63,848 nucleotides of DNA, filler included, from Actinomycetota bacterium (GCA_046725875.1; 3 parts of 3 records of this genome joined end to end with filler, not necessarily neighbours in it); one strand, 5' to 3'. Counted from the whole stretch's first letter, positions 7,132 to 55,495 are shown. Numbers and translations are program-made. Notes: generated from the letters alone by a model not told the origin.

Positions 7132-7193
7132 CCGTGCCACCGTCGGGTCGAGCGCGAGGCCGATCGGCGATCGAAGGGAGTGGAGCCACGGCA

Positions 7194-8198
7194 ATGAACG
7201 CAATGGAGGAGCAAATCGTCAGTGCGGCGATCGCCGGAGACGAGGCTGCGTTCACGCAGCTCGTCGAACGCCACCGCGGCGAGCTCCAGGTTCATGCCTA
7301 CCGGATGCTTGGCTCACTCGAGGACGCGCAGGACGCGCTCCAGGAGACCTTCCTCCGAGCGTGGACCGGGCGGGCGACGTACCGCGGGCAGTCGACCTTC
7401 CGCGCCTGGCTGTACCGCATCACCACGAACGCCTGCCTGAGAATCCTTGAGCGCCGGCCTCGCCGTCTAGTGCCGTACGACGCCGGCCCCGCCGCCAAAC
7501 TCGGCGCCCGTCCGCAGCCGCCGGCCGACCTACCGTGGCTTCAGCCCTACCCCGATCTCCTTATCGAAGAGACCCCCGGGCCCGCGGACGTGGTCGTCGC
7601 GCGAGAGACGATCGAGCTCGCGTTTCTCGCCGCGATCCAGCATCTTCCGCCGCGCCAGCGTGCGGTCCTGATCCTGCGGGACGCGCTCGACTGGTCGGCA
7701 AACGAGACCGCCGCGGTGCTCGAGATGAGCGTCGCCGCCGTAAACAGCGCGCTGCAACGGGCGCGGGCGACGATGAAGGAGCGGCTCCCGGCACGGCTCG
7801 AGTGGGCGGCGACCGCCGACGCCGAGGATGCCGAGCGGTCGCTCCTCCAGACGTACATGGATGCGTGGGAGCGACACGACGCGGCCCAGCTCGTGGCGCT
7901 CCTTCGCGAGGACGTGCGGATGGCGATGCCCCCCCACCCGACCTGGTACGAGGGCCGCGAGGCGGTCGCCGCTTTCCTCGCCGGCGTCGCGTTCGCGCCG
8001 GGATCGCAGGCGCACCGGTTCGTGCCGACCCGTGCGAACAGGCAACCGGCGTTCGGCGTCTACCGGGGCGACGGCGCCGACGCCAGACCGTTCGCGATCC
8101 ATCCGGTCGTGATCGAGTCCGGCCTGATCGCGGCCATGGACTTCTTCCTCTACCCCGAGCTCTTCCCGGCCTTCGGCCTCCCGGAAACGCTGCGATGA
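7194..8198 (+). CDS. ECF sigma-70 factor with SnoaL-like C-terminal extension (SigG/ECF56-like)
   Basis: YRMLGSLEDAQDALQETFLRAW, WLYRITTNACL, LPPRQRAVLILRD.LDWSA.ETA, then REDV.MAMPP..TRANRQPAF. Confidence 0.92.
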   Translation: MNAMEEQIVSAAIAGDEAAFTQLVERHRGELQVHAYRMLGSLEDAQDALQETFLRAWTGRATYRGQSTFRAWLYRITTNACLRILERRPRRLVPYDAGPAAKLGARPQPPADLPWLQPYPDLLIEETPGPADVVVARETIELAFLAAIQHLPPRQRAVLILRDALDWSANETAAVLEMSVAAVNSALQRARATMKERLPARLEWAATADAEDAERSLLQTYMDAWERHDAAQLVALLREDVRMAMPPHPTWYEGREAVAAFLAGVAFAPGSQAHRFVPTRANRQPAFGVYRGDGADARPFAIHPVVIESGLIAAMDFFLYPELFPAFGLPETLR

Positions 8199-9029: not shown

Positions 9030-10076
9030 CTACCTTGCCTCGCGGCTGCGTGGCGGGTTCTCTCCCGGAAGGTGGTCGGGCAGGCCGAACCGCTGGAAGA
9101 CGCCGGGCATCATAAACGCGGTCATCGCCTTCACCCGGGCGCCCTCCAGGGTGAGCACCTCGAGCGCCTCCGCCACGTAGCTGCCCGTCTGCGCGTCCCA
9201 GCGGTAGGCCGCGTTCGCTGGCTGGCCGTTCGCCCGAGTCGGCAGGTAGCGATGGACGGGCTGGGCGGCAAAGGCGGCGATGACCTCCCGACCGCGCCAC
9301 CAGGTCGGATACGGCGGCATCGCGAACGTGGCGTCCTTCGCGAGCATGGCCGCGAGCGCGTCGATGTCGCCCCGCCCCCAGGCGTCGAGGTAGCCCGCCA
9401 CGATCGCGCGGACCCGCTCGTCGCCGAGCGCGCGCAGGGTCGCCTGCTGGCTGCGCGCCGGCATCCGCTGGTCGACCCGCCGCCGCGCCCGCTGCAGCGC
9501 ACTGTTCACCGCCGCGACCGTGGTGTCCAGCGTCTCCGCGGTCTGTCTGGACGAGAAGCCGAGCACGTCGCGGAGCAGGAGCACGGCCCGTTGCGAGGCC
9601 GGCAGATGCTGCAGCGCCGCGATAAACGCGAGCTCAACGGCCTCCCGCTGCTCGTACCGAGCCTCCGGCGAGGCGTACCCATCTGCCAGCCGGAGGGCCT
9701 CGTCCGGGTACGGCTCCACCCAGACCGGTTCAGCTAGCGGTTCCCCCGGTTCGTCGCTCGGGCGAGCGGGACGGCCGTGCTCGATCGGCAGCCCCCGGCG
9801 GCGCCTGTGCCCAAGCGCGTCCAGGCAGACGTTGGTCGCGATCCGGTACAGCCAGGGGCGCAGCCGCTCGGGTCCCCGGAACCGCGGCAGCGCGCGCCAG
9901 GCCCGCAACAGGGTCTCTTGCAGCGCATCATCGGCATCGAACAACGAGCCCAGCATCCGGTAGCAGTGCGCGTGAATCGCCCCGCGGTAAGGCTCGACCA
10001 GGCGGCCGAACGCGTCGGCGTCCCCCCGGCGGACGGCGTCCAGAAGCCCGGACTCCGGCACCTCATGCCCGGCCAC
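9030..10076 (-). CDS. Second ECF sigma-70 factor with SnoaL-like extension (SigG/ECF56-like)
   Basis: HCYRMLGS.FDADDALQETLLRAW, WLYRIATNVCLD, EAVELAFIAALQHLP, DATFAMPP, TRANGQPA. Confidence 0.92.
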   Translation of the reverse strand: MAGHEVPESGLLDAVRRGDADAFGRLVEPYRGAIHAHCYRMLGSLFDADDALQETLLRAWRALPRFRGPERLRPWLYRIATNVCLDALGHRRRRGLPIEHGRPARPSDEPGEPLAEPVWVEPYPDEALRLADGYASPEARYEQREAVELAFIAALQHLPASQRAVLLLRDVLGFSSRQTAETLDTTVAAVNSALQRARRRVDQRMPARSQQATLRALGDERVRAIVAGYLDAWGRGDIDALAAMLAKDATFAMPPYPTWWRGREVIAAFAAQPVHRYLPTRANGQPANAAYRWDAQTGSYVAEALEVLTLEGARVKAMTAFMMPGVFQRFGLPDHLPGENPPRSREAR

Positions 10077-11523: not shown

Positions 11524-11937
11524 ATGGCGCTGACAGTCGCGGAAGGCAATGCGATCCTGAAGGCGAATTTCGCGCCCTGGGTTCAAGATCTCGGTCTTGT
11601 CGTCGAGGAGATCGGTCCTGGGCATGCCACCCTGCGACTGCCCAAGACGGAGCGACTTGCCCGGGAAGGTGGTGCCCTTTCTGGGCAAGCGCTGATGGCC
11701 GCCGCCGACACAGCCACGGTCATCGCGATCAGCGGCGCACGCGGCAACTACGGGCCCATGACCACGGTCCAGCAGTCGATCTCCTTCCAGCGCTCAGTTG
11801 TTGATGCGGACGTTCTCGTCACCGCGACGGTCACCAAGCTCGGCCGAACGCTCGCGTTCGCCAGCGTGAGCATGACCCCTGACGGCGCCCCTGATCCCGC
11901 CGCCCATGCGACCACCGTGTACGCCCTGCTCGGCTGA
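11524..11937 (+). CDS. PaaI family (hotdog-fold) thioesterase
   Basis: FAPWVQDLGL, REGGALSGQALMAAADT, KLGRTLAF. Confidence 0.85.
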   Translation: MALTVAEGNAILKANFAPWVQDLGLVVEEIGPGHATLRLPKTERLAREGGALSGQALMAAADTATVIAISGARGNYGPMTTVQQSISFQRSVVDADVLVTATVTKLGRTLAFASVSMTPDGAPDPAAHATTVYALLG

Positions 11938-12047
11938 GACCGCACGCAGATGCCCGAGGCGGGCCGTGGCGCCCTGGTGCGCCAGGGCCTACAGGATCGT
12001 CGCGGTCAACTCCCGGCTGCGAGGACGGAGCGTTCGCTGACTCGCCT

Positions 12048-14210
12048 TCAACTGGACGACGAAACATCGGGAGAGGTAGCGCCCAGCTGCGCCAGGACCT
12101 GCTCCCTATAGAGTCCAGGCAGCGCCATCAGCTCGTCGTGCGTTCCCCGCTGCACAATCCTTCCTTGTTCCATCAGCAGGATGAGGTCCGCATTGACGAT
12201 CGTGCTCAGCCGGTGGGCGATCACAATCCGCGTGCAGCCGAGCGTGTCGAGGTTGAGGTACACCATTCGTTCGGTGACGGAGTCGAGATCGCTCGTAGCC
12301 TCGTCGAGCAGCAGGATGGAGGGGCGATGGGCCAAGGCTCGGGCGAGTGCGATCCGCTGCTGCTGACCTCCGGAAAGCGACGCACCGCCATCCACGAGTA
12401 GCGTGTCGTAACCCATTGGCATGGCGACGATCTCATCGTGGATGCAGGCTAGCTTGGCCGCCTCGACCACCATCTCGTGAGGCATCCCCGGGTTGCTGAG
12501 AGCGATGTTCTGTCGAATGGTCGCTCCGAAAAGGTATGGCCTCTGCGTGACGATGCCGATCTGCCTACGCAGCGACTGGAGCTCGAGCTCGGCAAGGTCA
12601 GTCCCGTCGAACATGATCCGCCCGGACGTGGGGGGATACATGCCGAGGAGGATGTGTGCAAGGGTCGACTTCCCGGAACCAGTGCGCCCGACGATGCCCA
12701 ACTGCTGGCCGGGCTGGACTTCGAGCGACACGTCCTTCAGCACCTCGGGTGCCAGCGGCCCATAGGCGAACGAGATACCCTCGGCCGTTACCCGCCCGGA
12801 GAGGTGGTGAACGGTTGTTACCTGCTGCCCCTCCTGCTCCCGGGACGTGTCCAGCACCTCGTTGATGCGCTCCATGTAGCTACGCAGCAATTGGAGCTTG
12901 AAGGCCGTCTCGACCATGGTGGCAAGCGGCTCCAAAAAGCCGGCCGCCAGGGCAGCGGCAGCGAGCATGGTCCCGAGGGACAGGCTGCCGTTCAGAACCT
13001 GGAAGCCGCCGTAGACCAAGATGGCCAGCGGCGAGCCCAGCTGGAGCGTGCGCGTGACGGCATCCACGGACGCCTCCAGCCGTCCCCGGCGCACGGCCAC
13101 GTTTACCTGGTCGATGAACAACCGCTCCCAATGCTCGGCCGCTCGCCGTTCGGCACCCGCCGCTTTGAGCGTCTCGATGCCGGCCAACAGCTCAAAGGTG
13201 TAGCTCTGCGACTTGGCTTCAACCTGCAGGCTCTCCGACATCAGGTGTTGGTTCCGCCGCCGCGCGAGCAGGAGGAGCATCACCTGCAGCAGGCTCAATC
13301 CCAGGACGAGCACCGCCAGCGGAGGGCTCAGCATGAACAGCAGGACAAGGTAGAGGCTCGCTAGGCTGCCGTCAATCAGGGCCGAGATGGTGCCGGTGGT
13401 CAGGGTCTCGCGCACGACGGTGTGGCTTTGGAGGCGCATCATCAGGTCGCCGGCGGACCTGAAGAGGAAGAATGCATACGGAAGGTTCACCAAGTGGTCG
13501 ACGAAAGCCGTCGTCAGGCGTACGTCGAGGCGCGTGCGCAGTTGCAGCAGCAGGTGGCTCCGCAGCAGCGTCGCGACGAGGAAGTAGCAGACCACCGCAC
13601 CCATGGCGGCCCCGGTCACCAGCAGCAGGTGCTGGTCGTTGCGCGGGACGATCTCGTTCACTAGCAGCCCGGTCAGCACTGGAAGCGCGAGTGCGAGGAG
13701 CCGCAGGAGCACCGATCCGACGAGCACCCTGGTGAGCTTCCGGGATTGGCCGAGCAGCGGTCGGAGATACCGCCAGGTGCCCTTGTTGTTCAGCTTGGAG
13801 GTCTGGAAGTCCTCGCCCGGCTCGAACGTGATGGCGACACCGGTATAGGAGCGACGAAAGACCTCCATGGACAGTCGCCGGCGTCCGACGGCCGGATCCA
13901 CGACTTGCACGCCGTTTCTCCGCAGGCGCTCGAAGACGACGAAGTGCGTGAATTCCCAGTGGAGGATCGTCGCGGGAGGCAAGTGCCCGAGGTCAGCTAG
14001 GTCCGCCGTCACGCCTCTTGCGCTCAAGCCATACCGCTTCGCCGCCTGGGTCATGGCCAACGCGTCGACGCCGTCGCGGTTGGTGCTTGTCATCTGGCGC
14101 AGCTCGTCGAGCGGCACCTGCTTGCCGTGGTAGGCAAGCACCATGGAGAGACTGGCAGCACCGCAGTCGGCCAACCCCATCTGTCTGACCCAAGGCACTC
14201 GCCGGCGCAC
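12048..14210 (-). CDS. lanT: Peptidase-containing ABC exporter (C39 peptidase, TMD, NBD)
   Basis: RQ....DCG catalytic Cys, HFVVF His, VVDPA Asp; Walker [26 protein letters not shown]. Confidence 0.95.
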   Translation of the reverse strand: MRRRVPWVRQMGLADCGAASLSMVLAYHGKQVPLDELRQMTSTNRDGVDALAMTQAAKRYGLSARGVTADLADLGHLPPATILHWEFTHFVVFERLRRNGVQVVDPAVGRRRLSMEVFRRSYTGVAITFEPGEDFQTSKLNNKGTWRYLRPLLGQSRKLTRVLVGSVLLRLLALALPVLTGLLVNEIVPRNDQHLLLVTGAAMGAVVCYFLVATLLRSHLLLQLRTRLDVRLTTAFVDHLVNLPYAFFLFRSAGDLMMRLQSHTVVRETLTTGTISALIDGSLASLYLVLLFMLSPPLAVLVLGLSLLQVMLLLLARRRNQHLMSESLQVEAKSQSYTFELLAGIETLKAAGAERRAAEHWERLFIDQVNVAVRRGRLEASVDAVTRTLQLGSPLAILVYGGFQVLNGSLSLGTMLAAAALAAGFLEPLATMVETAFKLQLLRSYMERINEVLDTSREQEGQQVTTVHHLSGRVTAEGISFAYGPLAPEVLKDVSLEVQPGQQLGIVGRTGSGKSTLAHILLGMYPPTSGRIMFDGTDLAELELQSLRRQIGIVTQRPYLFGATIRQNIALSNPGMPHEMVVEAAKLACIHDEIVAMPMGYDTLLVDGGASLSGGQQQRIALARALAHRPSILLLDEATSDLDSVTERMVYLNLDTLGCTRIVIAHRLSTIVNADLILLMEQGRIVQRGTHDELMALPGLYREQVLAQLGATSPDVSSSS

Positions 14211-14761
14211 TAGGAGTCCCCACCTCCTGCCAGCATCCCGCCAAACTGCCGAAGAAAAAGACTAAGCATCCTCTCCGAGCGCAGAACGACGACGGCCCGG
14301 CCCTCGAGTCGCGGCGACGGCCGCAACGACGCCACGTCGGCGTCCGGTGCGAGGACCCCCGTGACCAGCACAGCCGGCTCGGAAAACGAAGCGAAGCCGG
14401 CCTGGCGAACGCCAGCCTGATCGGCGACGTCGGCCCTGATCACGCGGGCGGCAAGAGGCTTCCCGTCCCCGCCGTCCATCTGGAGGCGGACGAGCTGGCC
14501 GCGCTGGAGATCTGGAGAGGCGGCGGCCGGGACAAGGGCCACGAAGGTCCGTTCCTGCATGTTGATCAAGGCTGGCCCCGACGTGGTCTCGGAGGTGCGA
14601 ACCGTAGCGGCGACGACGACACCCGCAACCACCAACGCCAGCACGATCCAATACAGCCACCCGGTCCACGGAGGTTCGATCCGCAGCACGCCGCCTTGTC
14701 CAGGCCCGCTGACTCGGAAGTCGAGGGCCTCTTGGCGGAACAGGGATGGTCGTTCGGTCAT
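14210..14761 (-). CDS. Short HlyD/membrane-fusion-protein-like accessory protein
   Basis: N-terminal SLFRQEAL followed by one TM helix, as in peptide-export HlyD proteins; only 183 aa; overlaps both neighbours. Confidence 0.6.
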   Translation of the reverse strand: MTERPSLFRQEALDFRVSGPGQGGVLRIEPPWTGWLYWIVLALVVAGVVVAATVRTSETTSGPALINMQERTFVALVPAAASPDLQRGQLVRLQMDGGDGKPLAARVIRADVADQAGVRQAGFASFSEPAVLVTGVLAPDADVASLRPSPRLEGRAVVVLRSERMLSLFLRQFGGMLAGGGDS

Positions 14762-17700
14762 GACGGGACGGATCGGCGCCCAGCCTGGGCACTGTAGGCG
14801 CGGTCGAGTAGTTCGTAGAGGACGAGCTCCTGGGCCCGGTGGGCGGAGCGCAGCAAGCGATTGACGTGCATGTGCGCGTAGCTCATCGCGATGTCGGTAA
14901 GCCTCGCCGACAGCCGCCCGGCCTGGCCGAGCCGACGCAGCTCCGCCGTGACGGGAGCGAGCTGAAGCGATCGCCGGCGCAGCGCCTCCACTCCCGCAAG
15001 AAGAGGCGCCGGCGGAGCCTGTCCGGGATCAAGCAGCGCCTCCAGGCGGGCCCGCTCCGCCCTGTACCGGTCGCTCACCCGACCCCTGAAGTTCCCGTCG
15101 ATACCGAACTCCCGACCGAGGCCCTCCCGCGCCCGTCGTGCCAGGGATCGCTTCTCCTCGAGTGCCAGTCCGAGATCGTCGAAGAGCAGGTCCATGCCGC
15201 GGATGGCCAGACGCCAGCGCAGGTCGAGTCCGGCATCGCCCGACAACAGCCCGAGGATGGTGAGCACGGCTTCGCTGTCGGCGGCGAACACCAGCTCGGC
15301 CAGCTCGATCGCTCGGTCGCCGCCGAAGCGCTCGACCTCCCGCTCATAGGTGTCCAGCTGCATGCGCCACAGCTGCCCCGCCTCGAGGAGCGGGGCCGCG
15401 GCTGCTTCCAGGCTCGGTAGCACCTCGGCGTGGAGCCGCCCGGGTTCGCCGTGAAGACGGAGTCGCAGGTGCCACTCGGGATCGCTATAGCGAATGAAGA
15501 ACCAGGCGTCGGCGGTGCCGGAGGCGAGAGATGACCGTACCAAGGGGCCAACCAGGTGGTTGAGCACGTGGTCGGCCGTTCCCGCGCCCGTATAGAGCTT
15601 GGCGTAGAGCCACTCCGAGCCCGGTGGGAAGCGGCGACCGACCAGGCTGCTGGTAACGTGCCGGGCCGCGAAGTCGGGCTCGGGTCGCGGCGGGGCCGCC
15701 TGGATGAACGGAACGACCAGCTCGTGCACGAAACGGCCTTCCGGGCCGATGACACACAGTTCATCGGGGTCGGGGAACATCTCGACGAGTTCTGCCTGGC
15801 GTCGCCCCCGGAGCTGGCGAGCGAGCGCCGCGACGCTCAGCACGTTGTCGAGGTCGATGACGAGCTGGTGGTCACGATCGATGAGGGCCACGTAGCGCGG
15901 CAGCCGCCGCTCCGCGCGCCACGCTTGCACGGCGGCGAACTGGTCGGCAGTCCCGGTCTGGCCGAGCGCCAGCAGTTCGGCCTCCGTGAGGTTCCAGCGA
16001 GCGCGGGACAGCACGAGCCGTCCGCTGACGACCCGAGGCAGGAAGGGGGCTTGCCGGAGCGGACCCCAGTCCCACGTGAGGTCCGAGACCGCGTCCTGGC
16101 GCTGGAGCGCGCACAGGAAGCGGTACACGCCCAGGTTCCGCCAGTCCTCGTCGTGGGCGGTGGTGAGCCTCGGCGCGACCTCGCGCCCCAGACGCCGGGA
16201 GCGCAGAACGATCCGGTCGTTGCGCACCGATACCAGCAGGTCCGTTACGTGAAGCTGGCGGTCGGCCGGCGCGCCCGAGCGGCCGAGGTAGGGGATCTCG
16301 TACTCCCGCAACACAGGACGGCACAGGATGTTGCCGGTCCGGCCGTCGGGAAGATGCACGATCTCCGCGAACAACTGCTCGGGGTGGCGTGCCTCCTCCG
16401 CCTGGAGATAGGCGTGGACGAACTCGTGCAGGGCCCGGTCGGCGTGGCAGAAGCGGCCGAGCATCAGAGCGCCAGGCGGCCCGTCCACATACTGCAGGAG
16501 TACGCGGAACGCACCTTGCGCGATGGCGCGGTCGGACTCGGCCGCCACCGTGGCCATCGCGTAGAAGGCATCAGGGAGTGGACGATGCTGCTGCGAGGCC
16601 AGCGCCTCGAGGTCGGATGCCTCGAGCGCGATCTCGCCGGCCCCCTCGGCAAGCGCGTGCGCCAGCTTTCCCAGGAGCAATGCGTCGCGCCCGGTCCATG
16701 GCATCGCCTCTCGATCACCAGCGCGGAACGGGAGCCCGGCCAGCAGCGGAGAGGCCTCGGCCAGCGGCGAGTCGGACCGCTCGAAGCCGATGCCGAGCTC
16801 CTCGTCCAGCGCTTCGACCAGCGGGATCTCCCGAGTCTCGTAGCGCTTGGAGAATTTTTCGCGAAACCGCGCCAGGCCTCCAGGCCCTTGAGGACGAGCC
16901 AGCTGATGGAGGATCCTGACGCCTCGCGTGATCTCGGAGACGACCCGGCTGCCGAGCGTGGCCTCCTGGGCGGGTTTGACCAGGTCGACCTGCACCAGAC
17001 GGGACAGGTCGGGCTGAGCGGGGAGATCCGAAAGGTCCGAGGCGACGGCTCGATAGCGGTCGGGGGAGGCCCCCAGCCCCGCGGCGTCGATCGCCTCGAG
17101 GGCGGCCCGCGCCTCGTCGAGCCGCTTGGCGATCCGTGCCGTCTCTGCGTGAGCGCGCAACGTGGCGACCAGGCCGTGCACCGGCTCGTCTCCCGTGACG
17201 ACCGGCCGGGCGTCGCTGACGAGGAGCTGGTTGTCGACCAGCTCCGCCACGTATTCCTCAGCCTCGGCCTGGGTGATCTCGTCGTCGACCAACACCTCCG
17301 CCGCGGCCTCCGGCGTCGTTCCTCCTCGGGCCCGCTCGAGCACGGCGGTGAGATAGGGATTCTTGTCGACTGCGACGAGGTGGTAGGAGCGGCCGGTAGC
17401 GGTCAGCCGAGCTTCGGCCAGGCGCAGGCGACCAGCTGTCTCGTAGAGGCTGGAGTTGGGCTCGTACACGAACGGCTTGCGGAGCTGAGGGTCGCGCTCG
17501 ACGGCTTCGGCCAGCGCCCACAGGTAGTCCATGTCGAGCCGGCTATGACGTCGGTACCACTCCCGCGCCTTGAGGTGCAGCCTGGTGTGCGCGTCGATGG
17601 TGCCAGTGGTGATTCCTGCGAACAGACCAAAGGGGGTGGCTCGGGCCGCCGCTCGGCTGAAGTACGCCACCACGGCGGGCTCGAGCTTGCGGCCTCGTTC

Positions 17701-17988
17701 GCTGTCCGGATCCTTCTGCCAGACCTCGAGGGCCTCGTCCACGCTCGGTGAGGCGAGGAAGATCGCATCTCGCACCTCGGGACGGGTGACCGCCGCGAGG
17801 AGCCGGGCGCGGAGTCTGGCCCGGTCCCGCTCGAGGGCCGCCTCCAGGCGCTGGGGGTCGCCGAGCACGCCGATGGCTTCCAGTCCCTCACCCCAGGCCG
17901 CCATCTCCTCGAACGGCAACAATGGCGTCCGCAGAACGAAGAACCCCGACGGGGTGTATCGCTGGCCGGCCTTGTCGCGCTCAGTCAC
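14758..17988 (-). CDS. lanB: Class I lanthipeptide dehydratase (glutamylation and elimination domains)
   Basis: FVLRTPLLP, AYFSRAAARATPFGLFAG, WLYAKLY, WFFIRY.DP..HLRLR, YEREVERFGG, HMHVNRL; GTG start overlapping the lanC stop. Confidence 0.95.
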   Translation of the reverse strand: MTERDKAGQRYTPSGFFVLRTPLLPFEEMAAWGEGLEAIGVLGDPQRLEAALERDRARLRARLLAAVTRPEVRDAIFLASPSVDEALEVWQKDPDSERGRKLEPAVVAYFSRAAARATPFGLFAGITTGTIDAHTRLHLKAREWYRRHSRLDMDYLWALAEAVERDPQLRKPFVYEPNSSLYETAGRLRLAEARLTATGRSYHLVAVDKNPYLTAVLERARGGTTPEAAAEVLVDDEITQAEAEEYVAELVDNQLLVSDARPVVTGDEPVHGLVATLRAHAETARIAKRLDEARAALEAIDAAGLGASPDRYRAVASDLSDLPAQPDLSRLVQVDLVKPAQEATLGSRVVSEITRGVRILHQLARPQGPGGLARFREKFSKRYETREIPLVEALDEELGIGFERSDSPLAEASPLLAGLPFRAGDREAMPWTGRDALLLGKLAHALAEGAGEIALEASDLEALASQQHRPLPDAFYAMATVAAESDRAIAQGAFRVLLQYVDGPPGALMLGRFCHADRALHEFVHAYLQAEEARHPEQLFAEIVHLPDGRTGNILCRPVLREYEIPYLGRSGAPADRQLHVTDLLVSVRNDRIVLRSRRLGREVAPRLTTAHDEDWRNLGVYRFLCALQRQDAVSDLTWDWGPLRQAPFLPRVVSGRLVLSRARWNLTEAELLALGQTGTADQFAAVQAWRAERRLPRYVALIDRDHQLVIDLDNVLSVAALARQLRGRRQAELVEMFPDPDELCVIGPEGRFVHELVVPFIQAAPPRPEPDFAARHVTSSLVGRRFPPGSEWLYAKLYTGAGTADHVLNHLVGPLVRSSLASGTADAWFFIRYSDPEWHLRLRLHGEPGRLHAEVLPSLEAAAAPLLEAGQLWRMQLDTYEREVERFGGDRAIELAELVFAADSEAVLTILGLLSGDAGLDLRWRLAIRGMDLLFDDLGLALEEKRSLARRAREGLGREFGIDGNFRGRVSDRYRAERARLEALLDPGQAPPAPLLAGVEALRRRSLQLAPVTAELRRLGQAGRLSARLTDIAMSYAHMHVNRLLRSAHRAQELVLYELLDRAYSAQAGRRSVPS

Positions 17989-19366
17989 CTGAGGTGCCCG
18001 GATCAGGCTTCGGGGCCGAGACCAGGAACATCCGGTCCCAGGTGGGCTCGACGGATGTTGCCGCAGCCAACAGGACCAGGGCGACCCCGGCGGCTCCCTC
18101 GACGAGTTCGGTGCCGGTCCACGTCCACAGCTCCCGCTGGCCCGGGTCCCAGTTTCCCTCCACCCACGTGCCGCCGGCGTCTCTGGCCCGACGGTAGAAG
18201 CCGAGCGTGCGCTCCAGCCAGTACAGGGCGGCACGGCCGAGCTTGGGTTCCCCGGTGGCTTGGTACATGCGGTTGTAGAGATGGGCCAACCCGGCCGCTC
18301 CGTGGCAGAAGTTGGCGTTGACGACTCCGGTCTCTGACGTTGGCCGTTCCGCCGCCCGGCAGGCCAGCGCCACCGCCGAGCGCTCCCAGCCGGCATCACC
18401 CACGCCGCGCGCCGCGATCAAAAGGGCGGCCGCAATCCCGGGATCCCCGTAGCACCAGGCGCAACGGGCTGGCGACGGCTGGAAGGCTGGTGCCACCCAG
18501 ACGGGGAAGGTCGGGCCCGCTTCGGTCGGCACCGAATGCGCCAACAGCCAGCTCACAGCCCCCTCAAGGAGCGGGCGCGCCGTCACCTCCGCCACCCCGG
18601 CGCCGCATACGCTGCCAAGAAGGGCGATGGGCCCGGCCACGCCGTGGGCGACCCCCAGATCGGTGCGCCCGGACGGATACTGCTCCCGGGATTCTTGATC
18701 CAGTATCTCGGTGGGTGGCGTCCACCAGGAAAGCCCATGGTCGTCGTGCCGGGCGCACTCCTGCAGCCGCTCGACGACCCGGCGGAGGCATTCGATCGCG
18801 AGCGGGCGCGGGTACCGTTGCAGGGCGTACACGCCGAGACCAGTGAGGCCCACGACAAGGTCGTAGGGCGCCGACCACAGGTTGGGCCGCGACAAGAGTC
18901 GCAGAAGCGCGTCGTCGACTGCCTCGCCGCGGTCCTCTGCGTCCGGGTCGAGCATGCCGTCCACCAACTCGGCCGCCCAGGCCACGCCCGTGAACCCTCC
19001 GTAGAGGGAAGCGTTCATCGCCCGCGTCGACACCGCATCGACGGCCTGGTCGAGACACTGTGATGCGAGGACGTCCGCCTGCGGCATGCGGCAGGTCCGG
19101 GCCAGCCAGGTGTACAGGAGGGCCAGACCGGCCTGCCCCCTGCCGAGCGAAGGGTCTCGTTCGCCGGGTACTGCAGTCATCGACGTGATGGACTCGGTGA
19201 TGGCGTCGACTGCCTGCAGAGCCTGCTGCGCCGTTGCGCCCGACAAGATCGGTCGCCAGGAGCTTCCGCGGCCCGCATCACCCAGCGTCGGCGTGCGGCC
19301 AACCCCACTCCGCTCACCACGCAGGCCTATTCCGCCGTCAGGATTGCCTTGCACTACGTCGCTCAC
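17981..19366 (-). CDS. lanC: Lanthipeptide cyclase
   Basis: GVAHGVAG, WCYGDPG, FCHGAAG (Zn ligands C, C, H). Confidence 0.95.
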   Translation of the reverse strand: MSDVVQGNPDGGIGLRGERSGVGRTPTLGDAGRGSSWRPILSGATAQQALQAVDAITESITSMTAVPGERDPSLGRGQAGLALLYTWLARTCRMPQADVLASQCLDQAVDAVSTRAMNASLYGGFTGVAWAAELVDGMLDPDAEDRGEAVDDALLRLLSRPNLWSAPYDLVVGLTGLGVYALQRYPRPLAIECLRRVVERLQECARHDDHGLSWWTPPTEILDQESREQYPSGRTDLGVAHGVAGPIALLGSVCGAGVAEVTARPLLEGAVSWLLAHSVPTEAGPTFPVWVAPAFQPSPARCAWCYGDPGIAAALLIAARGVGDAGWERSAVALACRAAERPTSETGVVNANFCHGAAGLAHLYNRMYQATGEPKLGRAALYWLERTLGFYRRARDAGGTWVEGNWDPGQRELWTWTGTELVEGAAGVALVLLAAATSVEPTWDRMFLVSAPKPDPGTSGD

Positions 19367-19419
19367 CCCCGCGCCGCGCGTCCTCCTGCGGCGGCAACCG
19401 TGTCGTCCGACCGGGAATG

Positions 19420-19459
19420 TGGATCAGGCAGCCCACATATACGTGCGCTGCCTGATCCA
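19420..19459. terminator. Stem-loop between lanA and lanC
   Basis: TGGATCAGGCAGC-N14-GCTGCCTGATCCA perfect 13-bp stem. Confidence 0.6.
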
Positions 19460-19489
19460 TTCGGCCTGGAACTGCTCTGCCAGCAATCC

Positions 19490-19545
19490 TTACGCGTTCG
19501 GGTTACCGGCAGCCCGAGTTACGTGTTCGGGTTATGAACAGCCCG
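19490..19545. repeat. Imperfect tandem repeat, 29-bp period, over the lanA 3' end
   Basis: TTACGCGTTCGGGTTAccggCAGCCCG / TTACGTGTTCGGGTTAtgaaCAGCCCG. Confidence 0.7.
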
Positions 19546-19684
19546 GTGCCTTGGTGTTGGGGCAGCCATTTGGACCACCCTGTGGCGGGGTGTTGCCGCC
19601 ACTTTGGTCGCCACCGACGATCAGGGACAGTTCCTTCTCGTCGAGCGTCCGCAGGGTCTCCTTGGACAGCGTTAGCTTCTTCAT
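19532..19684 (-). CDS. lanA: Lanthipeptide precursor, 50 aa, double-glycine leader
   Basis: Hand translation MKKLTLSKETLRTLDEKELSLIVGG-DQSGGNTPPQGGPNGCPNTKAPGCS*; GAGGGAGAGAG RBS; first gene of the lan operon. Confidence 0.92.
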   Translation of the reverse strand: MKKLTLSKETLRTLDEKELSLIVGGDQSGGNTPPQGGPNGCPNTKAPGCS

Positions 19685-20181
19685 TGACTCTCTCCCTCTG
19701 GGCATCTGGAGGAACCGTCGTGCGCGGTTTGCTTGCGCACGGCGATACCACCGTCCTGCATCCCGGAGGTACGCTCTGAGTACCTCCCGTGCGGACGGAT
19801 ATGAGCATTGTGAAGTGCGTGCTTCGCGAGGTCATGGATGTGCGCGCGGGAGGCCCCCGTTGCCGCGGCCGTCCGGTTTCTCGCTTGATACGGCCGCCTT
19901 GAAGCTGTTGCGCTGACAGGCACACGGTCGCCCGAAACCCCCCGGAAGTAAACCCGGTGGAGCTGGCCCGGCGTTCCACCCCCGTCTGCTGGCGGAAGCA
20001 AGGCCAGCTCGCCGGTTCTCACTAGAACTTAAGGAATCTAACACTGTCTCGCATAGCCGTCTACCAGCGGCTCGGCCAACCGGGGGACCCGTGTTGGCAG
20101 AAGACCAGCGGGCGGTGGGACGGCGTGGCGAGCGGCAAATCCGGCTGCACGTACCTGTTTGCCAGGAAGTGGACGGCGGGC

Positions 20182-21189
20182 CTAGCCGAACGTGAACACG
20201 TAGGCCTCAACACCCGGAGCGAGAAAGGTGATCTCGAACGTGCGGTCGATGATCGATCCCCCTTGGCGAATCAGCTGATAGAGCCGTGGTTGGATCAGCG
20301 CTCCGTGGCCCTGTTCGTCGACGTCGAGCCCGTGAGCGGCACCGGGGGGTTCTCCATCGACGAGGACGCCGAACGGCACGGACGTGCCTCGCGCACGCGG
20401 ACCCATGACGAGATGGACGTCGCGGGCGTGGAAGCGAAACACAATCCGTCCGTCGGCGCGGTTCAGCACGCTTGCTCCGCTCTCGATCGTCCAGTCCCCG
20501 GATAGAGCCCAATGGTTGAGCCTCAACTGATCCGGAGCGACATAAGTGCGAGGTTCGTCGAAGTCGGCGCCATCGGGAGACGCAAAGTTCTGAGTTTGCT
20601 CGTAGCCCAGGTAGGTCTCCGGCGATCCCAAATTCGTCCAATCGGCTTGGGCCTCGAAACCCTCGGCGGTGCCGGAGACCAGATCGTCGCCGACGCGGTG
20701 TCCAGCCTCGCCCAGCAACCACTGGACGACCATTTCGCACTCCTCGTATCCGCCCTCGCCGAATTGGTGGTGTCGGATTCGTCCTTGCGGGTCCGCGATG
20801 TACAGAGCGGGCCAGTATCTGTTGGCGAAGGCACTCCAGATTGCATAATCGCTGTCGAGCGCGATCGCATACTCGACGGTCATGTCCTTCGCTGCCTGGC
20901 GAACGTTGTCCACGTCATGCTCGAACGGAAACTCCGGCGTGTGGACGCCGACCACGACCAACCCTTGATCCTCGTACTTCTCGGCCCACGCACGGACATA
21001 GGCGAGCGTCCGGAGCCAGTTGATGCAGGTGTACGTCCAGAAATCGACGAGAACGACCTTCCCGCGCAGGTCGGCGACGGTGAGCGGCGCCGAGTTGAGC
21101 CAGCCGGTCGCCCCGTCAAAACCAGCCAGGTGACTCTCGACAGGCAACGCTGCCGCTCCGGGATGGCGTCGCGCGCCGAACAGGTTCAC
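20182..21189 (-). CDS. Redoxin domain protein (DipZ C-terminal-like: thioredoxin plus beta-sandwich)
   Basis: LRGKVVLVDFWTYTCINWLRTL (CxxW), GVHTPEFPFE, SPETYLGY, YVFTFG. Confidence 0.88.
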   Translation of the reverse strand: MNLFGARRHPGAAALPVESHLAGFDGATGWLNSAPLTVADLRGKVVLVDFWTYTCINWLRTLAYVRAWAEKYEDQGLVVVGVHTPEFPFEHDVDNVRQAAKDMTVEYAIALDSDYAIWSAFANRYWPALYIADPQGRIRHHQFGEGGYEECEMVVQWLLGEAGHRVGDDLVSGTAEGFEAQADWTNLGSPETYLGYEQTQNFASPDGADFDEPRTYVAPDQLRLNHWALSGDWTIESGASVLNRADGRIVFRFHARDVHLVMGPRARGTSVPFGVLVDGEPPGAAHGLDVDEQGHGALIQPRLYQLIRQGGSIIDRTFEITFLAPGVEAYVFTFG

Positions 21190-24199: not shown

Positions 24200-24299
24200 N
24201 NNNNNNNNNNNNNNNNNNNNNNNNNNNNNNNNNNNNNNNNNNNTTAATTAATTAANNNNNNNNNNNNNNNNNNNNNNNNNNNNNNNNNNNNNNNNNNNN
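24200..24299. other. Artificial contig linker
   Basis: N run containing TTAATTAATTAA (stops in all six frames). Confidence 0.98.
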
Positions 24300-49808: not shown

Positions 49809-50378
49809 ATGACCGCCGGCGAGCTCGAGATGTCCACCGGGCCTTTCCAGCAGGCGTTGGCGAGTTTGGACCACGCCGAGCTGCGAACCGAGATAACGGT
49901 CGAGCGCGCGCCGGCACCGCCGCGGCTGGCGCCCTATACCCTCGCGCTTACCGCGGAGGTGGAAATTGACGGTGAGGAGCTCGCGTCCGGCCGGTTCGTC
50001 GTGCTTCACGATCCAGCCGGCCACGACGAATGGGCGGGCACCTTTCGCATTGTCACCTTCGTGCATGCGCCACTCGAGCCGGACATCGCGGGTGACCCGC
50101 TCTTCCCAGAGGTCGGCTGGACTTGGCTGACCGAGGCGCTGACGGCGCATGGCGCGTCGTACGTTGCCGCCAGCGGCACCGTCACCCGCGTTGCATCAGA
50201 AGGATTCGGTGGTCTTGCCGGGCAGCCGCCGGCCGCCGAGGTGGAGATCCGGGCGTCATGGACGCCGGCGGACGCGGAGCTCGGCTCGCATCTTGCCGCG
50301 TGGGGTGACCTGCTCTGCACGGTCGCGGGTCTGCCCCCCGCGGCCCCAGACGTTTCTGTGCTGCGCCCGCGCCGTTAG
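49809..50378 (+). CDS. DUF3000 family protein
   Basis: [26 protein letters not shown]; synteny. Confidence 0.85.
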
Positions 50379-50439
50379 GAGGGCGTACGCGGCGCCCGCG
50401 CGTGGCTGGCGACTCCGTGCGGTCTGGGAGGATGCGTCC

Positions 50440-51483
50440 GTGAGTGACGCGCCGCCCGACTCCGCGTTCGTCCGAGCCTGCCGCCGCGAAGCGGTCTCGT
50501 ACACGCCGGTCTGGTTCATGCGGCAGGCGGGCCGGTCGCTGCCGGAGTACCGGAGGCTACGGGCGGGGGTGCCGATGCTGGAGTCGGCCCGGCGCCCAGA
50601 GCTTGTCACCGAGATCACAATGCAGCCAGTGCGGCGGTACGGAGTAGACGCTGCGATTCTCTACAGCGATATCGTGCTGCCTCTGGCCGCGGTCGGAGTC
50701 GATGTGGAGGTCGAACCCGGCATTGGGCCGGTCGTCGCGGCTCCGATCCGGGAGTACGCAGACCTCGCCCCGCTGCGGCCGCTCGAGCCGGACGACGTGC
50801 CGTACATCACCGAAGCCGTCCAGGCGCTGGTTGGCGAACTGGGCAGCACGCCGCTGATCGGCTTCGGCGGGGCGCCGTTCACGCTCGCGACTTATCTGGT
50901 CGAGGGCGGTCCGTCGAAACACCATGAACGGACCAAGGCGCTGATGTACGGGAACCCGCTGTTGTGGCACGCACTCCTCGAACGGCTCGCGGTCATTACC
51001 GGCCAATTCCTCCGCGTCCAAGTCGAGGCGGGCGCGAGCGCCGTACAGCTCTTCGACTCCTGGGCCGGCGTGCTGCCCGCGTCCGATTATGAGGAGTACG
51101 TCTACCCGCACTCGGCCGCGGTCCTTCGCGCCGTCGAGGGCATACCGAAGATCCACTTTGGGGTAGGTACGGCGGAGCTGCTCGGCCTGATGGCCGCGGC
51201 GGGCGCGGACGTCGTCGGCGTGGACTGGCGGCTGCCGCTGGACGAGGCCGCGCGGCGGATCGGCCCCCGCCGGGCGGTCCAGGGCAACCTCGACCCGGCC
51301 GTGCTTTTCGCGCCCTGGGAGGTCGTCGCGGTGCGGGCTCGCTCGGTGCTAAACGCCGGGCGGGCAGCCGACGCACACATCTTCAACCTCGGTCATGGCG
51401 TGCTGCCCGACACCGATCCCGACGTTCTCGCCCGCCTCGTCGACTTCGTCCACACCGCGTCAGCCGTGCACCCGGGCGAATGA
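50440..51483 (+). CDS. hemE: Uroporphyrinogen decarboxylase
   Basis: [37 protein letters not shown]. Confidence 0.97.
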
Positions 51484-51523
51484 AGGTGCCCCTCATTCGA
51501 GAGGTCAGAACGAGGGGCACCTT
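51483..51523. terminator. Hairpin between convergent hemE and DUF4349 genes
   Basis: AAGGTGCCCCTC...GAGGGGCACCTT 12-bp stem. Confidence 0.6.
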
Positions 51524-51570
51524 AAGCGGCCGAAGACGGAGCGAACGCGCCTTACAGCCGGATGCACTAG

Positions 51571-52539
51571 CTAGCTGGACAGGGGTGCGTTGTCGGCGTT
51601 TGCCGCCTTGGCAGGTCGAGGCTGCCGGTGGCGACGGATCAGCGGGAACGCGACGGCGGCGACCACCACGCCGGCGACGATGAAGGGCAGCAGGGCGCCG
51701 ACGACGAGCAGCACGACGCCAACGAAGCCGGTGAAGGCCCGCCAGCCGTTCCGCAATCCGGCGAGGAAGCCGAGCTCGGTCTCCTTCTCTTCCCCCGCCG
51801 GCTGGTCGCCCGTCGCGGCGAGGTGCAGTTTGATCGTCCCCAGGTCGGCCTGCTCGGCCAGCGCCTTTTGCTGAGCGAGCAGCGACTCGAGGTCAGCCTC
51901 GCGACGGGAGAGCTCACTCTCGATCGCTACCACGTCGCCGATCTTCGTCGCGCGGGAGAGCAGCACACGCACCCTGTCCAGGCTTGCCCGCTGGGTCTCG
52001 ATCCGGCTCTGCACGTCCACGAACTGCTGTGTGACGTCCTTGGTGTCCCGGCCTTGGCTAAGCAGCCTACCTAGGCTCGTAAGCTCGCGAACCGTCCGCT
52101 CGTAGGCGTCTGGCGGCACGCGCAACCCGAGGTCGGCCGACGTGATGCGATCGTCGGAACCTGACCCGTCGCCGGTGCCGGACGATGTCTGCTCGAACTC
52201 AACACGACCACCGGCTGCGAGCGCTGTGTCCTCCGCCGCCCGAACTGCCCTAGTCACGTCTGTGACCTCGACGCTCAGGTCCGAGGTCTGGATGAGCTTC
52301 TGCTCCTGCAGCAATGCACCACTGGCATTGCGGTTCGCGGCGCTGCCGGCGGGCGCGGAGCCGGTCGCCGCTTCCTGCCCGGCATCGCCGCTTCCTGGCT
52401 GCGCACCGCCTGGTTCGACCCCAGGCGCTCCACCGGCCGCCCCGGTGTCGCCGCTGCCGCCGCCGCAGCTCGCCAAGGCGATCGACAGAGCGAGCGCAAC
52501 ACCGATGAGACCGATGGCATGTAGCCTCCGTCTACTCAT
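51571..52539 (-). CDS. DUF4349 domain lipoprotein
   Basis: Lipobox LASC, LRVP, DVTQQFVDVQSR, IESELSRREADLESL, C-terminal TM. Confidence 0.85.
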   Translation of the reverse strand: MSRRRLHAIGLIGVALALSIALASCGGGSGDTGAAGGAPGVEPGGAQPGSGDAGQEAATGSAPAGSAANRNASGALLQEQKLIQTSDLSVEVTDVTRAVRAAEDTALAAGGRVEFEQTSSGTGDGSGSDDRITSADLGLRVPPDAYERTVRELTSLGRLLSQGRDTKDVTQQFVDVQSRIETQRASLDRVRVLLSRATKIGDVVAIESELSRREADLESLLAQQKALAEQADLGTIKLHLAATGDQPAGEEKETELGFLAGLRNGWRAFTGFVGVVLLVVGALLPFIVAGVVVAAVAFPLIRRHRQPRPAKAANADNAPLSS

Positions 52540-52724
52540 TTCCGTCACCCCACTCACGGTGGTTCCTGATTGTCGTCCGGGACGCTTGTCCCGGCTCGTG
52601 ACGCGGTCGAGGGGATGGACGGAGGAGCAGCCCCCGGCCGGCGTCGTGACTGCGACCATCGCGGGCGATGGACCGGTTCCCGCCGCGGGATCGCGGTTGC
52701 GTCACGATCTGGCATCGTGGCGGT

Positions 52725-54161
52725 GTGGGCACCGGTGAGCAGGGTCGGCACGTCGTGGTGGTCGGCGGCGGCATCGCGGGTCTCGCCGCCGCGTTCTTTC
52801 TGCGCCAGGCAAGCCCGACCGGCGCGCGGTCTGCCGTAACCGTTTTGGAGGCAAGCCCGGTCGTTGGCGGAAAGCTTCGGCTCGGCGAGGTTGGCGGTAT
52901 CTATCTCGACCTCGGCGCCGAGGCGCTGCTCGCCCGCCGTCCGGAGGCGGTGGAGCTCATCCAGGCTGTGGGTCTTGGCGACGAAGTGATACATCCGCAC
53001 ACGACAGCAGCCGCGATTTGGTCCCACGGTGAACTCCATCCGATCCCGGCCGGTCAGGTGATGGGCGTCCCGGCCGACATAACCGCGATTGTCGGGAGTG
53101 GATTGCTCTCCAGGGCGGGTGCCGCCCGCCTGCCGCTCGACCATGTCCTGCCGCGCACTCGCATCGACGAGGACACCTCCGCTGGCGCGTACGTCTCCTC
53201 CCGGCTCGGTCGGGAGGTCGTCGACCGACTGGTCGAGCCGATCCTCGGCGGGGTTTACGCGGGTCGGGCCGACATGTTGTCGTTCAGCGCGACGATGCCG
53301 GATCTCGCGGCCGCCGCCCGCGAGCGCCGATCGCTGATCGAAGCTGCGAGGCATGTACGCTCCACCGCGGTCCAAACCGGCAATGGCCCGGTCTTCATTG
53401 GGCTTCCCGGCGGCGTCGGGCGACTTGCGGTGGCCGTCGCCGAGGCGTCGGGCGCGGAGATCCGCACCGGTGTGACCGTGCGCGCCCTCCGCCGTACACC
53501 GGCTGGCTGGGTGCTTACCGCCGGCTCGGCCCGGGCGCCCGAGGCCATCACCGCGGATGCCGTCGTGATCGCCGTACCAGCTCGCCCGGCGGCGCGGTTG
53601 CTCGACGCCGAATTGCCCGCCGTGGCCGCAGAACTCGCGTCGATCGACTATGCCAGCGTCGCGCTTGTCACGCTCGCCTACCCGCACGCGGCCTTTGGGG
53701 GGGTCCGGACAGGTAGCGGTTTCCTGGTCCCGCCGATTGAGGGACGGATCGCGAAGGGGGTGACCTTCAGCTCGGAAAAGTGGCAGTGGGTCGCCGCCGC
53801 CGAGCCCGGAACGATAGTCGTCCGCGTCTCGATCGGTCGCTATGGCGAGGAGCAGGATCTGCAGCGCGATGACGCAGAGCTGGTGAAACTCGCCGCCGGG
53901 GAGCTCCGCGAGCTTGCCGGGGTTCGCGGCACACCGGTGGATGCGTCCGTGACGAGGTGGGGTGGTGGGCTGCCACAGTATGCCGTGGGTCATCTCGGCC
54001 GGGTGCGCCGGATCAGAGACGGGGTCGCCGCCGTTCCTGGCCTCGTCCTGTGCGGCGCAGCCTATGACGGCGTCGGAGTACCGGCGTGCATCGCGACCGC
54101 GCGCTTGGCCGCGGAGTCCGTAATCAATGAGCTTTCGTCTGTACATAGGGTGGAGCGGTGA
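52725..54161 (+). CDS. hemG: Coproporphyrinogen III/protoporphyrinogen oxidase (HemY-type)
   Basis: [44 protein letters not shown]. Confidence 0.95.
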
Positions 54162-55395: not shown

Positions 55396-55495
55396 NNNNN
55401 NNNNNNNNNNNNNNNNNNNNNNNNNNNNNNNNNNNNNNNTTAATTAATTAANNNNNNNNNNNNNNNNNNNNNNNNNNNNNNNNNNNNNNNNNNNN
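55396..55495. other. Artificial contig linker
   Basis: N run containing TTAATTAATTAA. Confidence 0.98.

Follow-up and report, generated by a model that had tools for sequence, protein, structure and literature searches.

The stretch of DNA analysed here (the window: 63,848 nucleotides, filler included, from Actinomycetota bacterium GCA_046725875.1) carries five co-oriented genes on the minus strand of its first contig, in the order lanA-lanC-lanB-ORF183-PCAT, which probably form a working class I lanthipeptide operon, complete in itself, in an uncultured actinobacterium from soil (Table 1). The window joins three contigs of one bin, with N spacers marking the contig boundaries at 24200-24299 and 55396-55495; contig 1 spans 1-24199 and is linked to contigs 2 and 3 by binning only. 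A first-pass annotation made from the sequence alone had described the genes as lanA-lanC-lanB-HlyD-like-C39/ABC, and all five were found where it had placed them. The overlaps it noted among the last four are likewise present on direct reading of the sequence: lanC and lanB share 8 nt (GTGACTGA), with the GTG start of lanB lying over the lanC stop, lanB and ORF183 share 4 nt (ATGA), and ORF183 and PCAT share 1 nt (TAGTG). From these junctions lanC, lanB, ORF183 and PCAT read as translationally coupled. The lanA gene is present in a single copy in the window, and GAGGGAGAG, directly 5' of its ATG, is likely to be its ribosome-binding site. Among the flank proteins scanned, no lanP, lanFEG or lanI, regulator, methyltransferase or split LanB gene adjoins the operon, in agreement with the earlier statement that protease, regulator, immunity, O-methyltransferase and split elimination genes are missing from its neighbourhood.

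Table 1. Features of the lanthipeptide locus on contig 1 (positions in the window)
Feature	Position	Strand	Remarks
lanA	19532..19684	-	ATG 19684, stop 19532; 50 aa (translation)
lanA-lanC hairpin	19421..19458	-	12-bp perfect arms
lanC, lanthionine cyclase	17981..19366	-	Pfam LANC_like; start GTG 19366 or further downstream
lanB, full-length glutamyl-tRNA-dependent dehydratase	14758..17988	-	GTG start, 1076 aa; both Pfam domains
ORF183, minimal HlyD-family adaptor	14210..14761	-	183 aa; assigned by profile and predicted fold
PCAT, LanT-type fusion of C39 leader peptidase and ATP-binding cassette (ABC) exporter	12048..14210	-	720 aa; Pfam

The sequence contains what defines a class I cluster: a two-domain LanB, a stand-alone LanC and an adjoining precursor with a leader and a Ser/Thr/Cys core. 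LanB, a separate protein, carries the glutamylation (PF04738) and elimination (PF14028) domains end to end: the Pfam profile Lant_dehydr_N is matched from position 2 to 649 of 649 (5.7e-163) and Lant_dehydr_C from 1 to 255 of 255 (3.6e-68). Its matches in the PDB are MibB (1.5e-52), 9g04 (7.6e-46) and NisB (2.1e-31). In the phmmer alignment it is identical to NisB at R83, R87, T89, D121, D299, R786, R826 and H961 (8/8 aligned positions), which we take to be the catalytic residues; the chain numbering is that of NisB, as checked on R83, R87 and T89, and R464 lies outside the aligned stretches. LanC matches LANC_like (1.1e-37 over residues 70-448), with 8byk (1.2e-18) and NisC (2e-7) as its best PDB matches, and has the motifs AHG (240-242), WCYG (304-307) and CHG (354-356), which presumably supply the zinc ligands. 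The PCAT has the parts that define a PCAT/AMS exporter, namely an N-terminal C39 domain with the Gln/Cys/His/Asp set (Peptidase_C39, 2.4e-34; Q10, C16, H89 and D105 are invariant in 8/8 aligned PCATs), a six-helix ABC membrane domain (ABC_membrane, 1.2e-27) and a nucleotide-binding domain (ABC_tran, 1.1e-33) in which Walker A, the ABC signature and Walker B are all present. Its best NCBIfam match is TIGR03796 (2e-191, 637.8 bits), under the cut-off of 853.3. The catalytic motifs, reported as intact in the first-pass annotation, are indeed present in LanB, in LanC and in the C39 and ABC domains.

The precursor LanA consists of a 25-residue double-glycine leader, MKKLTLSKETLRTLDEKELSLIVGG, followed by a 25-residue core, DQSGGNTPPQGGPNGCPNTKAPGCS, with two Cys as well as Ser3, Thr7, Thr19 and Ser25. 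The leader scores 27.0 bits against NCBIfam NF038153 (lant_leader_L1a, 'class I lanthipeptide'; cut-off 22), a model that gives 25.6-30 bits in 3/3 related genomes and matches in none of 14 control genomes. It fits the pattern LxLxKx5L...GG (L4-T-L6-S-K8-ETLRT-L14 ... G24-G25), which has been described for class I precursors of Bacteroidetes whose clusters encode a C39 protease, double-glycine leaders having been known earlier only from classes II and III (PMC7268733; here and below, statements are those of the portions of each source that were available). The leader also fits the rule Leu(-12)-X3-Glu(-8)-Leu(-7) for recognition by ComA-type PCATs (PMC8277102) and the PCAT recognition pattern of hydrophobic residues at -4, -7 and -12 (PMC10885120). 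The FxLD/FDLD box, F(N/D)LD, is absent from MKKLTLSKETLRTLDEKELSLIVGG, and the earlier view that the precursor is not of the FxLD type is upheld.

The core belongs to a well-populated family. Among the best 120 of 177 LanA homologues, 118 match the leader pattern; all 118 have CPN[TS]K and an N-terminal SG, 116 have exactly two Cys, and together they show 94 different cores. The conserved scaffold in these best 120 of 177 is xQSGxNxPPxGGPNxCPNTKxxGCx. The product would most likely be a bicyclic 25-mer with Ser3-Cys16 and Thr19-Cys24 rings, a topology read from this pattern. The motif SxxxCTP(G/S)C, with which peptides of the nisin/gallidermin type bind lipid II (PMC7268733), occurs neither in the window core nor in any of the 60 most frequent among the 94 unique cores, and by its core the product is not nisin-like. 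Many LanA homologues carry the precomputed Pfam domain PF28317.1, which may already describe the leader or the core.

Relatives are abundant. LanB relatives at 80-92% identity form more than 100 clusters in metagenomes, and the lan cassette recurs in Actinomycetota metagenome-assembled genomes (MAGs) at 74-92% LanB identity. A scan of species genomes gave seven loci, six in Actinomycetota/Actinomycetes MAGs and one on a 1.7-kb 'Dormiibacterota' MAG contig. The gene order lanA-lanC-lanB-ORF183-PCAT is kept in all four loci of sufficient length (L001, L003, L004 and L006), and the three fragments are consistent with it. There are two copies of lanA in L001, and one copy plus a remnant in L004. 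Outside the five genes nothing is shared: 0/7 tested flank proteins of the window are present in any of the seven loci, the flanks of L001, L003, L004 and L006 differ from one another, and the cassette loci have no immunity, protease or regulator gene in common. Horizontal mobility of the cassette is plausible.

Some of these loci show variations of their own. In L001 (198-593) the two lanA genes have differing cores, ...CPNTKAPGCF and ...CPNTKGPGNSCT, each with its own hairpin 3' of the gene, whilst in L004 (2635-2691) a truncated lanA-like remnant lies upstream of the intact lanA. The most distant cassette, L006 (4870-4990; LanB 74%), has a His/Lys-rich core with a single Cys and without CPNTK. 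In L003 (7557-8541), genes for an IS3-type transposase (HTH_Tnp_1, HTH_21, rve) lie directly downstream of PCAT.

For ORF183, the description 'HlyD-like' has to be divided. As a family match it fails: neither Pfam nor NCBIfam has a family that ORF183 matches at E up to 0.01 (HlyD_3, HlyD_D23 and Biotin_lipoyl_2 included), a profile search of the PDB with its alignment gives nothing under E 0.4, and its model finds no match in the PDB with Foldseek at E 0.001 or better. As a statement of kinship it stands, on the evidence of profile matches and the predicted fold. Among 1.84 billion representatives, the profile of ORF183 finds 900 hits at E<=0.001 (237 at E<=1e-10), many of them of about 180 residues; the longer relatives align in two stretches with the lipoyl region between them. 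When 28 of the hits were scanned with Pfam, 17 had HlyD_3, mostly with Biotin_lipoyl_2 and HlyD_D23, nine had no family (including 4/4 short forms), one had a peptidoglycan-binding domain and one a weak receiver-domain match. The 120 homologues listed are of 176-183 residues and all are unnamed or 'hypothetical protein'.

The AlphaFold2 model of ORF183 (mean predicted local distance difference test score 67, from 34 sequences) has an N-terminal LFRQEAL tail, a membrane helix (about residues 31-54) and a six-stranded beta-barrel (57-161). With about 125 residues after the helix and a single barrel in the model, there is no lipoyl (barrel-sandwich) or alpha-hairpin domain. In a wide structure search the top 8/8 matches are periplasmic adaptor proteins at Z 10.2-7.8: EmrA (Z 10.2; root-mean-square deviation 2.4, 87 residues aligned), EmrAB-TolC (9.6), MacA (9.3), BesA (9.2), Spr0693 (8.6), ZneB (8.6), a MacA-MexA chimera (8.6) and BACEGG_01895 (7.8). 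Below them come the generic barrels of HerA and ATPases, at Z <= 7.1. Because the profile search reaches HlyD_3 proteins and the predicted fold matches adaptors, ORF183 is taken to be a true but minimal relative of the HlyD family, reduced to a tail, a membrane anchor and a beta-barrel. The anchor and barrel are common to periplasmic adaptors such as EmrA, MacA, BesA and the Gram-positive Spr0693 and YknX; ORF183 differs from these in being without both lipoyl and hairpin domains and in having a PCAT in a monoderm as its partner, whilst BesA is without the hairpin only (PMC8277102).

The pairing of this adaptor with a PCAT is not confined to lanthipeptide loci. Homologues of ORF183 occur in 5/401 sampled Actinomycetota genomes (E<=1e-5). 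Two of these (G001 and G005) have the five-gene lan cassette; in the other three (G423, G343 and G299) a homologue of 171-174 residues lies directly upstream of a C39 PCAT (3/3), and the scanned ORFs of these loci include neither lanB nor lanC. Their surroundings comprise an RTX/PD40 protein, an ATP-grasp gene alongside a C39-VKOR protein, and genes of the phosphonate type (the genomes of G343, G299, L006 and L030 are flagged as unpublished). Since three Actinomycetota loci pair adaptor and PCAT with no lanB or lanC among the scanned ORFs, the pair appears to be an independent export module. When PCAT and ORF183 were modelled as a complex, the score of 0.21 against a mark of 0.32 spoke neither for nor against binding. 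A profile comparison of ORF183 with the 232-residue HlyD protein of Spirosoma (probability 0.8, E 0.068) lends no support, and the hidden Markov model of ORF183 misses that protein and, within 6 kb of the PCAT of Nonomuraea, detects no adaptor.

An alternative is that ORF183 is a self-immunity protein, or some other peptide-specific accessory membrane protein, rather than an exporter adaptor. Small proteins anchored in the membrane frequently act in lantibiotic immunity, ORF183 has no curated family match, and the operon is otherwise without an immunity gene. However, the profile links it to HlyD_3 proteins (E 1e-12 to 1e-19), the structural matches of the barrel are headed by eight adaptors, the gene is coupled to PCAT in translation, its homologues lie beside PCATs at loci whose scanned ORFs include neither lanB nor lanC, and a short HlyD_3 protein also directly follows LanB in the Spirosoma cluster. 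An immunity or other accessory function of this kind is therefore unlikely, and ORF183 as a minimal adaptor is the reading followed below.

Two further observations concern relatives of ORF183. In L030 (4440-10492) the mini-adaptor and PCAT adjoin a C39-VKOR fusion and a RimK-like ATP-grasp gene, and this may be a different peptide pathway on the same export module. Distant relatives of ORF183 (P0453, P0469, P0474, P0478, P0481, P0492, P0513, P0458 and P0441) include three unusual kinds: HlyD-family proteins with an N-terminal GAF or PilZ domain, an HlyD_3-C39 fusion, and one short form with a peptidoglycan-binding domain.

The host is best regarded as an actinobacterium, as the first-pass annotation had it: all usable organism labels but three point to Actinomycetota, and the other labels seen are Actinomycetes, Streptosporangiaceae, Acidimicrobiia and one Geminicoccaceae. 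WhiB is found in 4/5 related MAGs compared with 1/14 control genomes (Corynebacterium). On contig 2, genes for hemE (URO-D), a DUF4349 protein, a hemY-like amine oxidase and a chlorite-dismutase-family protein lie together at 50149-54931, a hemE-hemY-hemQ layout that we take to be the coproporphyrin-dependent haem route of monoderms.

The ancestry of the genes is less uniform. A LanB tree of 17 rows (quick search, LG+G4 model, support by the Shimodaira-Hasegawa-like approximate likelihood ratio test only, rooted on three Bacillota rows) places the five MAG rows in one clade with support of 100. This clade is nested, again with support of 100, with four Bacteroidota, two Proteobacteria and Streptomyces ADI95-16, and lies apart from the MibB-like actinobacterial rows (Streptomyces NBC_01320 and Nonomuraea) and from the FDLD-type Bacillota rows. 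The labelled rows are PLSDB plasmid records only, one of which, the 11.85-Mb Nonomuraea record, is chromosome-sized; most rows have a deviant amino-acid composition and sampling is thin, so that the tree gives an affinity and not a donor. The phylogenetic check proposed in the first-pass annotation thus sets this LanB beside Bacteroidota, Proteobacteria and one Streptomyces, away from the MibB-like and FDLD types. Scores against plasmid records run the same way: 536 bits for Spirosoma, 524 for Cupriavidus and 439 for Streptomyces sp. ADI95-16, and lower for another Streptomyces (234) and Nonomuraea (185). For LanC, in contrast, identity is 43% to the Streptomyces ADI95-16 protein and 26% to that of Spirosoma, and amongst labelled matches the PCAT is 43% identical to Nonomuraea, 35-40% to Bacillota and 30% to Spirosoma. 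Because LanB groups with a diderm-rich clade while LanC and PCAT are nearest to monoderm proteins, the operon looks like a mosaic rather than a recent import. The 'Gram-negative-style architecture' of the first-pass annotation consequently survives in the leader design and the LanB clade; for the export part it was overstated, given the Nonomuraea/Bacillota-like PCAT, the Streptomyces-like LanC and an adaptor without lipoyl and hairpin domains.

The nearest LanB relatives outside the MAGs have neighbourhoods of their own. On a Cupriavidus oxalaticus plasmid (L013, 5553-15233), the nearest proteobacterial LanB adjoins an 830-residue ORF with a weak C-terminal LanC match, and the upstream ORF holds a leader-like stretch, KLTLERETIRNL, a combination that suggests a hybrid pathway. 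The nearest cultured-actinobacterial LanB/LanC pair, on a plasmid of Streptomyces sp. ADI95-16 (L015), is accompanied by a GrrM/OscB cyclophane-forming radical SAM maturase and an extra PF14028-type gene.

A recent transfer of the entire cassette to Actinomycetota from a diderm donor would account for its portability, for the variable flanks in all loci, for the IS3-type transposase beside the L003 PCAT and for the diderm-rich LanB relatives. The annotation's suggestion of horizontal acquisition is borne out to the extent that these flanks and the transposase make mobility plausible. However, the G+C content at third codon positions (GC3) of the five operon genes is 0.74-0.84, inside the 0.74-0.89 range of their neighbours, and with this native composition there is nothing pointing to a recent import from a diderm. 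The family has also diverged within Actinomycetota MAGs, down to 74% identity for LanB and 54% for ORF183; PCAT, ORF183 and LanC have monoderm affinities; and the LanB tree, small, outgroup-rooted and built with plasmid-record rows, cannot name a donor. A recent transfer of the whole is improbable, and a mosaic operon is preferred.

A mis-binned contig, with the cassette belonging to a diderm (Bacteroidota or Proteobacteria) in which its architecture would be ordinary, is very improbable. It would fit the grouping of LanB with Bacteroidota and Proteobacteria, the publication of this leader type for Bacteroidetes (PMC7268733), the 1.7-kb fragment in a 'Dormiibacterota' MAG, the one LanB labelled Geminicoccaceae and the lack of an actinobacterial marker on any cluster contig. 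It is opposed by five MAGs with differing isolate labels that are all Actinomycetota/Actinomycetes, four of the five with WhiB, by relatives on contigs of 88.7 kb and 296 kb, by the likeness of operon and neighbours in GC3, by a LanC nearest Streptomyces and a PCAT nearest Nonomuraea/Bacillota, by neighbouring ECF sigma factors with SnoaL_2 tails, and by hemE-hemY-hemQ in the same bin, if that layout is, as we assume, a monoderm marker.

The preferred actinobacterial operon has a candidate expression signal in the hairpin between lanA and lanC. The region 19380-19535 (156 nt) folds at -71.4 kcal/mol (z = -4.63), and 0/200 shuffles were as stable. L001 and L004 have exactly the same hairpin arms, and the window contains these arms once, where none is expected by chance. 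No U-tract follows the hairpin on its 3' side. It is probably a partial terminator or an mRNA-stabilising 3' structure. A promoter and terminator scan of 11900-20250 gave no promoter-like site and three terminator-like sites against 2.8 expected, and an Rfam scan of 11900-20300 gave no match at E up to 0.1. Contigs from soil RNA libraries (at least 88% likeness) fall on lanA, lanC, lanB and PCAT in 4/4 runs from two studies. In DNA runs, at most 0.14 of the sampled words were present. The bin 14406-14667, in ORF183, is nearly uncovered in all four runs, and is uninformative, as the relatives diverge most there. The summed contig depth of the two lanA bins is about 8-750x that of the other non-zero bins in 4/4 runs and was not counted as evidence. 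That the operon is a decaying or silent remnant without a product is barely credible, even though many double-glycine class I operons are cryptic in culture (PMC9680876), since all frames are open, the catalytic residues are conserved across many variants and matching contigs are present in soil RNA libraries.

In the scheme favoured here, LanA would be made with its 25-residue leader as a guide for LanB and LanC. LanB would glutamylate core Ser and Thr residues from Glu-tRNA(Glu) and then eliminate the glutamate to leave dehydro-residues, to which LanC would add the two conserved Cys to close the rings. The PCAT would read the leader (Leu-12, Glu-8, Leu-7 and Ile-4), cleave after Gly-Gly and export the core, with ORF183 as its putative partner at the outer face of the cytoplasmic membrane. 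The hairpin 3' of lanA would probably keep lanA mRNA above that of the enzyme genes, and the five genes may move jointly as a cassette among soil Actinomycetota.

Several points weigh against this reading. Dehydration, ring topology, cleavage and export are all deduced from sequence. Thr7 and Ser25 of the window core are not conserved, which leaves the dehydration count open, and the Ser3-Cys16 ring, with its 14-residue span, would be large, so that other pairings are possible. The start codon of lanC is uncertain. With no immunity gene present, a role as an antibiotic is uncertain. Wherever the hairpin occurs its arms are identical, which gives no covariation support, and L006 is without it. 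The RNA-library contigs are assembled and come from relatives, DNA may be present among them, and their depth cannot rank genes. Lastly, the dissenting organism labels are Dormiibacterota, Geminicoccaceae and Acidimicrobiia (the latter still Actinomycetota), and WhiB is never on the cluster contig, so that the assignment to Actinomycetota rests on MAG binning.

The closest known design is that of the Bacteroidota double-glycine class I systems (pinensin, Ped15.1/15.2 and the cluster on a Spirosoma oryzicola plasmid, L014), which also combine an LxLxKx5L...GG leader with a C39 PCAT. In the Spirosoma cluster a 232-residue HlyD_3 protein directly follows lanB, as ORF183 does here, and its LanB lies in the same major branch. 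In contrast, Spirosoma has six 'class I lanthipeptide' precursors and the window one; the LLM oxidoreductase, prolyl oligopeptidase and two-component system of the Spirosoma type are not found here; the host here is of a monoderm phylum; LanC and PCAT are only 26% and 30% identical; and the adaptor here is shorter and misses the HlyD_3 threshold. Pinensin reportedly has a split LanB, unlike the full-length LanB here. The overall design is thus held in common with the Spirosoma cluster, with export genes that by their similarities are of monoderm type.

Other known systems share parts of the design. The viridisins and thalassomonasins of Gammaproteobacteria have, as here, a separate LanB and LanC acting on double-glycine precursors, and modification by VdsCB has been shown in E. 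coli; their cores, compared by description only, are unrelated to this one, and a transporter is not mentioned in the available portion of the source (PMC9680876). The FxLD/FDLD class I clusters (microbisporicin MibB, nisin NisB, gallidermin) have the same enzymology and their catalytic residues are common to this LanB, but the present operon has no FxLD box, subtilisin-type LanP, LanFEG/LanI or lipid II motif, and its LanB is of another branch. Lanthiphages are widespread, mobile actinobacterial class I LanB/LanC clusters with anti-phage activity, which need LphD/E/F (an extra PF14028 protein, or PF01135) and a TXDXCXXXCXXXC core (bioRxiv 10.1101/2024.06.26.600839, available portion). No LphD, LphE or LphF is present in the operon or its flanks, and the core has two Cys and is not of the TXDXCXXXCXXXC form. 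NHLP export, with its TIGR03796/TIGR03797 ABC pair and HlyD protein, likewise joins a PCAT to an HlyD-family partner; here there is one ABC gene rather than two, no NHLP leader, a much shorter adaptor and a score under the cut-off.

The double-glycine class I peptides that have been tested are pinensin, Ped15.1/15.2, the thalassomonasins and the viridisins, all from Bacteroidota or Gammaproteobacteria (PMC9680876), and the double-Gly/C39 design has so far been described for Bacteroidetes and Proteobacteria (PMC7268733, PMC9680876), as far as the available portions go. The proposal that the operon makes an uncharacterised lanthipeptide family accords with this. A literature search found no paper on this core ('CPNTK') or on Actinomycetota double-glycine class I peptides, although the supplements of PMC7268733 may list related precursors, and the NCBI annotation already names one Actinomycetota MAG homologue of LanA 'class I lanthipeptide'. 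Taken together, the genes describe an uncharacterised, metagenome-abundant family in which a class I design with a double-glycine leader is combined with an exporter of monoderm type and a minimal adaptor. The same leader logic, in the literature found (seen in part) described and tested before only from Gram-negatives, would then operate in soil Actinomycetota.

The compact five-gene cassette is suited to heterologous expression, and its conserved scaffold, with two putative rings, is without a known target. Its many soil-metagenome variants and the soil RNA-library contigs suggest that the peptide may matter ecologically. The most original part of the finding is the minimal adaptor: so small a member of the HlyD family could reveal what the beta-barrel itself contributes to a peptidase-ABC exporter where there is no outer membrane. 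More tentatively, and with the balance rather against it, ORF183 may represent a widespread, undescribed class of minimal HlyD adaptors that assemble into a ring at the exporter's outer side and are the standard partner of PCATs in monoderm Actinomycetota, serving several peptide classes, whilst the peptide would be a lanthipeptide that is abundant in soil and has a role other than that of an antibiotic, speculatively in protease inhibition through its Cys-Pro-Asn-Thr-Lys loop or in signalling. Either role, if true, would explain the missing immunity gene.

The neighbouring genes on contig 1 include two sigma factors of the extracytoplasmic function (ECF) type, at 7134-8195 (plus strand) and 9033-10076 (minus strand), each with a C-terminal SnoaL_2 domain. 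They lie 2-5 kb from the operon and neither is conserved next to the cassette in other loci. On the other side, a gene for an AhpC/TSA and Thioredoxin_10 protein (20185-21189, minus strand) is co-oriented with the operon and lies 500 nt upstream of lanA; it is absent beside the cassette in every related locus and probably lies outside the operon.

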